Program-made: the position numbers and the translations under genes
The notes under the pieces: model-generated
The model's input: only the letters and a program-made list of their open reading frames with translations
Databases searched by the model: none
Told to the model about the DNA's origin: nothing
Part shown: positions 16,404-17,657 of the stretch, piece after piece
How positions within the stretch are numbered: position 1 is the first letter of the stretch
How the letters are laid out: each line of letters begins with the position of its first letter
Assembly: GCA_048940445.1 (NCBI GenBank)
Contig: JBHLON010000020.1
Location: forward strand, 1 to 62,811
DNA length: 62,811 nt
Direction of reading: 5' to 3'
Source of the DNA: Promethearchaeota archaeon
GTDB lineage: Archaea > Asgardarchaeota > Lokiarchaeia > Sigyniarchaeales > SOKP01

Positions 16404-17657
16404 CTACAATTTTAAAGAAAATACTGGATTCAAGCGGGCTATAATCTCTCCTAAATCAAGTTGTAACATCTTTAAAATTACATCTCTTCCCCGATATTCA
16501 AATTGTAATTCTTTTACATTCTTAATTATTTTTAATTTTTTATTATCTTTTACTAATTCACAGACAAAATATCTTTGGTCGTTGTATTCTAGAATTTTCT
16601 TTACATTTTGAATATCTGGGAGATTATATCCCCCCCCATGGGCCAAAATATTTACATTTCTTAATAATTCTAACAGTCCTAATTTTGAAGCTCTTTTTAT
16701 GAAATTATTAGTCTTTAAGGTAACTTCTGAAAGGTTTTTCCGTCCCATAAATAAATAACAAGCTATATCTGCTCTAAGAGCTGTAGGAAACACATTTGAC
16801 GTGATAAATTTACAATTAATATCAGTACAATTACTCCCTAAATACATGTTATTAAAATCTTTCAGAAATTGGTGTGGTTGATTACAAATTACTTGATAAT
16901 CACTACCAAAAAGATGATCTGCAATAAATCTCCTTTTTCTATTTGAAAAATTCAGAGCCTTTTCATTAAAATCTAAGTAATCAATTGCATCAGAATCCAT
17001 TAGAATATATTGTTTTCCAAAAACAGTATTTTCCTCACATGCACGTTCTTTTAACATTTTCGACTGATCAATGTACAATCCAATTCCGTATTGATCGTCT
17101 CTAAATTCTGGAGCAGAGCCATGTACAAAAAATGTATACGGTGGAAAATCTATGTCTGAGAGATTTTTAGTTTCAAAACAATTAATAAAATGATTTGAGA
17201 TTCCATAGTCCCAATTAATTAGAATATCTTTATAATATAGTTCTTCTGATTTAATTTCGTCAATTTTTTTTATAAGATCGTATGGATCTGGAAGTTCATA
17301 TAATCCTCCACATAATATGCCACAGCAATTTGGTTTAATATTTAGGAAAATTAATTTATCATTTCCAGTTCCCCAGTTTAACCTACCTCCATAACCTAAT
17401 CCAGAATTCCACCTAAAAGTATTCCTTGAAACAGTTTCATCTGGTGAAGATATAAATGTTGCTTTAGGTTCAAACCCATACTTTTCTTGAATAAGGTGGA
17501 ATTGAGCAAGTCCGTACTTCATATTAGCTCTACAGAGTTTGGAAGCTCCATCATTTAAACCAGTTGAAAAAATATATTTTTCTGCTCTACTTAATAAATC
17601 AGCTTTATGCAATTGAGATAAATTCTTAGAAATACTAGAGCTCGCCATGGAAAACAA
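16404..17657 (-). CDS. Divergent RtcB-family RNA 3'-phosphate/5'-OH ligase
   Basis: Motifs in RtcB order: SPD..GLGYGG, PNCCG, GISNHF, VHGS, QPHQ, AHGGG, and C-terminal ARLNPVFSLK; ATG at 17648 is the likely start. Confidence 0.78.
   Translation of the reverse strand: MFSMASSSISKNLSQLHKADLLSRAEKYIFSTGLNDGASKLCRANMKYGLAQFHLIQEKYGFEPKATFISSPDETVSRNTFRWNSGLGYGGRLNWGTGNDKLIFLNIKPNCCGILCGGLYELPDPYDLIKKIDEIKSEELYYKDILINWDYGISNHFINCFETKNLSDIDFPPYTFFVHGSAPEFRDDQYGIGLYIDQSKMLKERACEENTVFGKQYILMDSDAIDYLDFNEKALNFSNRKRRFIADHLFGSDYQVICNQPHQFLKDFNNMYLGSNCTDINCKFITSNVFPTALRADIACYLFMGRKNLSEVTLKTNNFIKRASKLGLLELLRNVNILAHGGGYNLPDIQNVKKILEYNDQRYFVCELVKDNKKLKIIKNVKELQFEYRGRDVILKMLQLDLGEIIARLNPVFSLKL

Follow-up and report, generated by a model that had tools for sequence, protein, structure and literature searches.

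A divergent RtcB-fold family in Asgard archaea and bacteria that retains the catalytic core of RtcB and lacks its RNA-contact arginines

Background

The RtcB fold has hitherto been treated as one family, the 3'-phosphate/5'-OH RNA ligase RtcB (PF01139), with structures including 4DWQ and 1UC2, the T. thermophilus protein 2EPG and human RTCB. In the P. horikoshii enzyme, metal site 1 is formed by Cys98, His234 and His329, and site 2 by Asp95, Cys98 and His203 (PMC9745838). The 5'-OH strand is bound at its first two phosphates by Arg238, whose loss in E. coli RtcB slows sealing 200-fold (PMC8051266). An endonuclease acting together with RtcB carries out non-spliceosomal mRNA splicing of the XBP1/cbf5 type, the machinery expected to remove an intron of the bulge-helix-bulge (BHB) type.

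A different set of enzymes provides a chemical comparison. In the synthesis of F420 (CofC and CofD), cobalamin (CobU and CobS) and di-myo-inositol phosphate (IPCT and DIPPS), a phosphomonoester is activated with a nucleoside monophosphate (NMP) and transferred to an alcohol by two enzymes, and CobU works via a His-GMP intermediate.

Here we analyze a locus of a Lokiarchaeia MAG that is 93% complete. The window, meaning the whole stretch of DNA under analysis, comprises 62,811 nucleotides, and its preliminary description reported a highly divergent RtcB-type RNA ligase directly beside an intron-containing metG gene. Features of the locus are listed in Table 1. No published description of the family was found in the literature searched, which excluded the 2016 RNA repair survey of Burroughs and Aravind.

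Table 1. Coordinates and supporting evidence for features of the locus, numbered from the first letter of the window
Feature	Position	Strand	Evidence or remark
414-aa enzyme with the RtcB fold, unmodelled family	16404..17648	(-)	ATG start; public gene call, structure model, conservation
Predicted active site of the RtcB-fold protein	D70, N107, C109, N152, H153, H176, H259, H337, K413	(-) gene	suggested by motif and profile alignment
Perfect 15-nt tandem repeat, two copies	17672..17701	none	read from the sequence; just upstream of the RtcB-fold gene start
metG (methionyl-tRNA synthetase), 685 aa without intron	14312..16401	(+)	convergent neighbor of the RtcB-fold gene
32-nt BHB-type intron in the metG HIGH motif	14382..14413	(+)	predicted; in-frame stop inside

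Results and discussion

Gene model and conservation

The minus-strand open reading frame extends over 16404-17657, where a TTG at 17657 would add 3 aa. The start called in public data is the ATG at 17648, and the resulting length is shared by most close relatives. All motifs that had been listed for this frame are present and in the expected order, namely SPD70, GLGYGG, PN107CC109G, SN152H153F, VH176GS, PH259Q, AH337GGG and the terminal P-x4-K413. A loose pattern built from these motifs had no match among 20,000 shuffled versions of the protein and a single one among the 1,518 long open reading frames of the genome, the RtcB-fold frame itself; since the pattern was derived from this very sequence, the shuffle test excludes only a compositional origin of the motifs.

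One search returned 409 homologues, the best 120 of which share 69-82% identity and are mostly hypothetical proteins of Promethearchaeota (Lokiarchaeota). Comparison of the gene with five gap-free relatives gave dN of 0.11-0.19 and dS of 1.2-3.4, a dN/dS of at most about 0.1, and the gene is under strong purifying selection. The tandem repeat lies in a divergent intergenic region and is a possible regulator site. Promoter and terminator scans did not rise above the level of chance.

Fold assignment

An AlphaFold2 model of the protein, calculated with 95 relatives as input, reached a pLDDT of 96 and a pTM of 0.93. All 16 significant Foldseek matches to this model were RtcB proteins. Structure comparison had been named beforehand as a check on the assignment, and exhaustive structural alignment with VIA-align placed the model in the RtcB fold, with T. 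thermophilus RtcB at Z 21.3 (rmsd 3.5 A over 306 residues) and the GMP-bound P. horikoshii RtcB at Z 21.5 (rmsd 3.5 A over 319 residues, 14% identity), compared with Z 4.9 for the next, unrelated fold. RtcB structures overall scored Z 21.3-21.7 at 12-14% identity. The predicted protein thus has the same whole fold as the described RtcB structures (Z 20-22, rmsd about 3.5 A over about 315 residues), and on this model it is a member of the RtcB structural superfamily. The full-length fold match and the order of the motifs suggest that the listed residues cluster into one active site.

Sequence profiles give a far fainter signal. Profile-profile comparison to RtcB yielded E 7e-5 with a probability of 62%, in an alignment that pairs the NHF, HxGS, HN/HQ, HGxG and C-terminal motifs, and a search with the family profile reached RtcB at E 0.02 only. 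The protein itself has no Pfam match, three of its 95 relatives match PF01139 weakly (best E 0.007), and the NCBIfam model PRK09588 scored 16 bits, far under its cut-off of 407. BLASTP against the RtcB of the same genome gave a best E of 0.7. Matches obtained with phmmer against the PDB, among them a clostridial enterotoxin at E 0.03, were rejected as chance hits.

Active-site residues

Residues were mapped onto P. horikoshii RtcB by motif and profile alignment, and their conservation was counted over 147 family sequences, the most distant at ~25% identity. The metal-binding Cys and His residues and the catalytic His had been described as apparently retained, and they are present in 147/147 sequences: C109, H176 and H259 are equivalent to Cys98, His234 and His329 of metal site 1, C109 and H153 (His203) belong to metal site 2, and H337, which aligns to the canonical HGSG, corresponds to the guanylylated nucleophile His404. 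At metal site 2 there is no Asp three residues before the Cys. The position two residues before C109 is occupied by N107 (Asn in 143/147, Asp in 3/147), and Asp95 has probably been replaced by Asn, with N107 as the likely substitute ligand. The 5'-OH anchor Asn202 is kept as N152 (143/147) and the guanine-binding Lys480 as K413 (114/147). At the position of Glu206 the protein has Asn, most relatives have Asp, and Asp or Glu is found in 95/147.

The losses that had been proposed, of the DxxC Asp, the HRKGA motif and the Arg after HGAG, are likewise borne out across the 147 sequences. HRKGA, including its lysine, is gone family-wide and LG-S/C/A stands in its place; Arg408, which follows HGxG, is a Tyr (Y341) in 137/147; and the Arg238 position, P180 in this protein, varies across the family (S/P/D/G) and is followed by a conserved Glu. 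Conserved residues new to the family are R75, N76, R79, E181, Y341 and R386, and a TRN-x2-RW segment is new with respect to RtcB. Because the catalytic core is conserved while RNA-holding residues have been lost and new residues gained, the catalytic chemistry appears to be preserved and the substrate pocket remodelled. In the reading favored below, the protein would be an active binuclear-metal enzyme, the metal probably being Mn. It is about 70 aa shorter than RtcB, and its family lacks the pairing with archease, RtcA or PrfH.

Distribution and the canonical ligase

The preliminary description had suggested looking for a separate canonical rtcB, and one was found on contig C94, apart from the RtcB-fold gene and next to archease, so that the linkage typical of archaeal RtcB holds for the canonical gene and fails for the divergent one. 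The same genome encodes two EndA genes and RtcA. The RtcB-fold family occurs in 83 of 201 Asgard genomes, is near-universal in one Lokiarchaeia family, and forms 236 clusters at 50% identity whose hosts include Chloroflexota, Spirochaetota, Planctomycetota, Aerophobetes, Bathyarchaeia and others. Canonical RtcB co-occurs in 79 of the 83 Asgard carriers and in 47 of 50 other hosts, one of the 47 being contributed by an unpublished genome (G233, locus L089) on which no conclusion rests; since the canonical ligase is nearly always present, the RtcB-fold protein is not a stand-in for it. No relatives were found in viral contigs or in phage and plasmid records, and PADLOC gave no match to the protein, so that a mobile or defense role is unsupported.

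The interpretation given in the preliminary description stands in part. The retained core, the structure comparison, the conservation and the separate canonical rtcB all speak for a distinct subfamily, and the designation as an RNA ligase falls short, since the RNA-holding residues are lost and the genomic partners are mostly small-molecule enzymes. With the profile, RNA-contact and archease-linkage tests failed, the protein should not be classed among the RtcB RNA ligases.

Several irregular genes were recorded in the course of the survey. Two family genes (G134:C30 and G092:C198) contain one internal stop, due to either an intron or a broken gene, and at L072:2-2289 two RtcB-fold genes from separate branches of the family stand in tandem. 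Matches to canonical rtcB in four genomes of one Asgard family (G064, G070, G047 and G088) have one in-frame stop each and are 27 nt longer than usual; judging from their sequences, these four possibly carry an intron in the ligase gene itself.

The metG neighbor and its intron

The RtcB-fold gene and metG stand tail to tail, with 2 nt between the end of the former and the metG stop codon. Excision of the insertion in metG, an essential gene, restores WPYVNAVPHLGN and gives a 685-aa MetRS. The insertion can be folded into a 9-bp stem with a central helix of 3/4 pairs and two 3-nt bulges, the cut falling after the second bulge base. It is present in 5 of 23 readable genomes; insertions of 31-32 nt with different inner sequence occupy the same metG site in four relatives of two genera and are absent in 18. 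We regard it as a real BHB-type intron, the splicing of which is inferred. In principle the canonical EndA and RtcB-archease of the genome are enough to remove it.

A tie between the RtcB-fold gene and this intron, implied by the preliminary description, is not supported by the relatives: the gene stands tail to tail with an intronless metG in 15 genomes and with an intron-bearing one in three. The adjacency belongs to a family-level synteny that also includes VWA-RING and M20 peptidase genes. It is thus incidental, and the distribution of the RtcB-fold gene does not follow the intron. The VWA-RING gene upstream of metG (13053-14231) encodes a protein that joins a VWA domain (Ssl1/Tfb4-like) to zinc fingers of the RING/PHD/C1 type; this eukaryote-like architecture is conserved at the same place in the host family.

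Gene partners across loci

Gene neighborhoods were surveyed at 129 loci from many phyla; as many contigs are short and kin loci are non-independent, the figures below are counts and carry no statistics. An HD hydrolase is the immediate neighbor in 31/129 loci (including the one from L089), on either side and at times with overlapping stop and start codons. A phosphoesterase of the HD, tandem calcineurin-like or GDPD type lies within three genes in 44/129, and an ATP-grasp ligase, AstE-like peptidase or gamma-glutamyltranspeptidase is found nearby in 22/129. The HD partner is nearest to YpgQ/YedJ, of which YpgQ-type proteins are nucleotide pyrophosphohydrolases. In a quick tree whose deep forks are unresolved, such associations turn up repeatedly on distinct branches, among them the archaeal groups closest to the clade of the window. 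In the window's own clade none of the recurring partners is adjacent, and they are encoded elsewhere in the genome.

Three different ATP-grasp families flank the RtcB-fold gene. The commonest of them has a fold like that of eukaryote-type glutathione synthetase and, among 201 Asgard genomes, is present in 37, which all belong to the host's family and in which it is unlinked to the RtcB-fold gene. In the host family this ATP-grasp partner, an unmodelled glutathione-synthetase-like gene (L163:5869-8572, G000:C131), comes immediately after a Clp1 kinase gene in 19 of 20 genomes; in Helarchaeota, Methanonatronarchaeum and Chloroflexota, members of its family follow the RtcB-fold gene. Helarchaeota have a four-gene cluster of phosphoesterase, HD, RtcB-fold and ATP-grasp genes.

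Other contexts are confined to particular clades. A distant second paralogue of some Lokiarchaeia (L054:4844-11037, L052) lies in an operon with genes for a GT4 glycosyltransferase, an NTP-transferase, a CDP-alcohol phosphotransferase and inositol-1-phosphate synthase; this inositol-phosphate operon is the best lead to the substrate, and it resembles that of IPCT/DIPPS. Further members are fused to an APH kinase or to a calcineurin-like domain, or are located within APH/GT28/radical-SAM clusters. Two bacteria (L074, L077) carry the gene immediately after a chemosensory operon, which is complete and includes a response-regulator cyclase, and ahead of an MFS/TLC-like transporter; the TLC-labelled neighbor cluster includes plain HEAT-repeat proteins, and the transporter is real in four loci only. 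RNA-repair neighbors are rare, with RtcA and archease in two related loci each of the 129. RtcA, PolX and a Clp1-like kinase lie downstream of the gene in related Sedimentisphaerales loci; archease adjoins it in two Bathyarchaeia loci, one of which has canonical rtcB three genes away; and a PHP-family protein follows it in eight loci of one clade. As the neighborhoods vary by clade, no single substrate emerges.

Proposed chemistry and alternative readings

The reading that we favor, at somewhat less than an even chance, is that the chemistry of RtcB, which proceeds through His-NMP and an activated phosphate to a phosphodiester, is applied here to a small phosphorylated metabolite and not to a polynucleotide. 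It is preferred because the RNA-contact residues Arg238, Arg408 and the HRKG segment are lost while the catalytic core is kept, and because the partners are mostly small-molecule enzymes. As the invariant residues suggest, His337 would attack an NTP, which is probably GTP, with formation of His-NMP and release of pyrophosphate. The NMP would then be handed to the small molecule, at a phosphomonoester or a cyclic phosphate that has been opened, yielding X-pp-N. In a speculative last step, this product might be released, or a hydroxyl held by Asn152 might attack it to form the phosphodiester X-p-Y. The HD, calcineurin-like and GDPD hydrolases encoded nearby would trim or degrade the product, the glutathione-synthetase-like ATP-grasp ligase would add an amide-linked tail, and the AstE-like peptidase would remove it. 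With CofC/CofD, CobU/CobS and IPCT/DIPPS only the proposed chemistry is shared; their folds are unrelated and they employ two enzymes in place of one. A replacement of CofC/CofD by the RtcB-fold protein was considered and dropped, as members of both the CofC and CofD families are encoded in the genome. CobS was sought in the same genome and not found, which carries little weight at 93% completeness.

Against the small-metabolite reading, the new conserved residues R75, R79 and R386 could take over RNA binding from the lost arginines, the partners are absent beside the gene in the window's clade, and a few loci have nucleic-acid repair neighbors. These points lead to the main competitor, to which we assign a smaller but substantial chance: processing of nucleic-acid ends, by a second RNA or DNA ligase with other substrates or by a 3'/5'-phosphate capping enzyme like those among the RtcB paralogues, repairing together with the neighboring phosphoesterases. 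Every characterized RtcB-fold protein works on nucleic-acid ends, the 5'-OH anchor Asn202 is retained, and HD and calcineurin-like phosphoesterases serve RNA end-healing too. The Sedimentisphaerales, Bathyarchaeia and PHP-protein loci described above fit such a role, as does the host-family ATP-grasp partner that adjoins a Clp1 kinase. However, the residues with which RtcB grips RNA, including the HRKG lysine, are gone across the family, RtcA and archease are rare neighbors, a canonical ligase is nearly always encoded as well, and operons for inositol, glycosyltransferase, kinase and amide-ligase functions fit RNA repair poorly.

The remaining readings are less probable. A role in nucleotide signaling, in which the protein would hydrolyze cyclic phosphates as a phosphodiesterase or synthesize dinucleotides of the Np(n)G type and the HD or calcineurin-like protein would erase the signal, would agree with the chemosensory operons of two bacteria, a weak cyclase match behind the gene in another locus, cNMP-binding and TLC-type transporter neighbors in a few loci, and the affinity of the HD partner to YpgQ-type enzymes; such contexts make up fewer than 10 of the 129 loci, on distant branches outside the window's clade, and we consider this role unlikely. 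A dedicated ligase for the metG mRNA intron, forming a local splicing module, is suggested by the 2-nt spacing from an intron-bearing HIGH motif gene but is highly improbable given the preponderance of intronless neighbors, the few genomes with the intron, the wide occurrence of the family in bacteria away from metG, and the EndA subunits and canonical RtcB-archease already encoded. Just as hard to credit is an inactive scaffold or binding protein: the Asp95 ligand is no longer Asp and identity to RtcB is merely 12-14%, but five catalytic residues are invariant in all 147 sequences. 

The favored small-metabolite reading can be extended to a phosphodiester synthase consisting of one enzyme. 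Together with dedicated phosphoesterases and a glutathione-synthetase-like ligase of circularly permuted type, it would make an undescribed phosphate-linked metabolite or cofactor common to Asgard archaea, Bathyarchaeia and anaerobic sediment bacteria. In this full form, which would be the first RtcB-fold enzyme of small-molecule metabolism, the proposal is less likely than not.

Conclusions

A second deep and widespread family of the RtcB fold goes unrecognised by curated libraries. If its members act on RNA, they would be ligases with a mode of substrate binding that differs from that of RtcB. If they act on metabolites, the chemistry of RtcB would extend beyond RNA, and the family would point to an unknown pathway in Asgard archaea.
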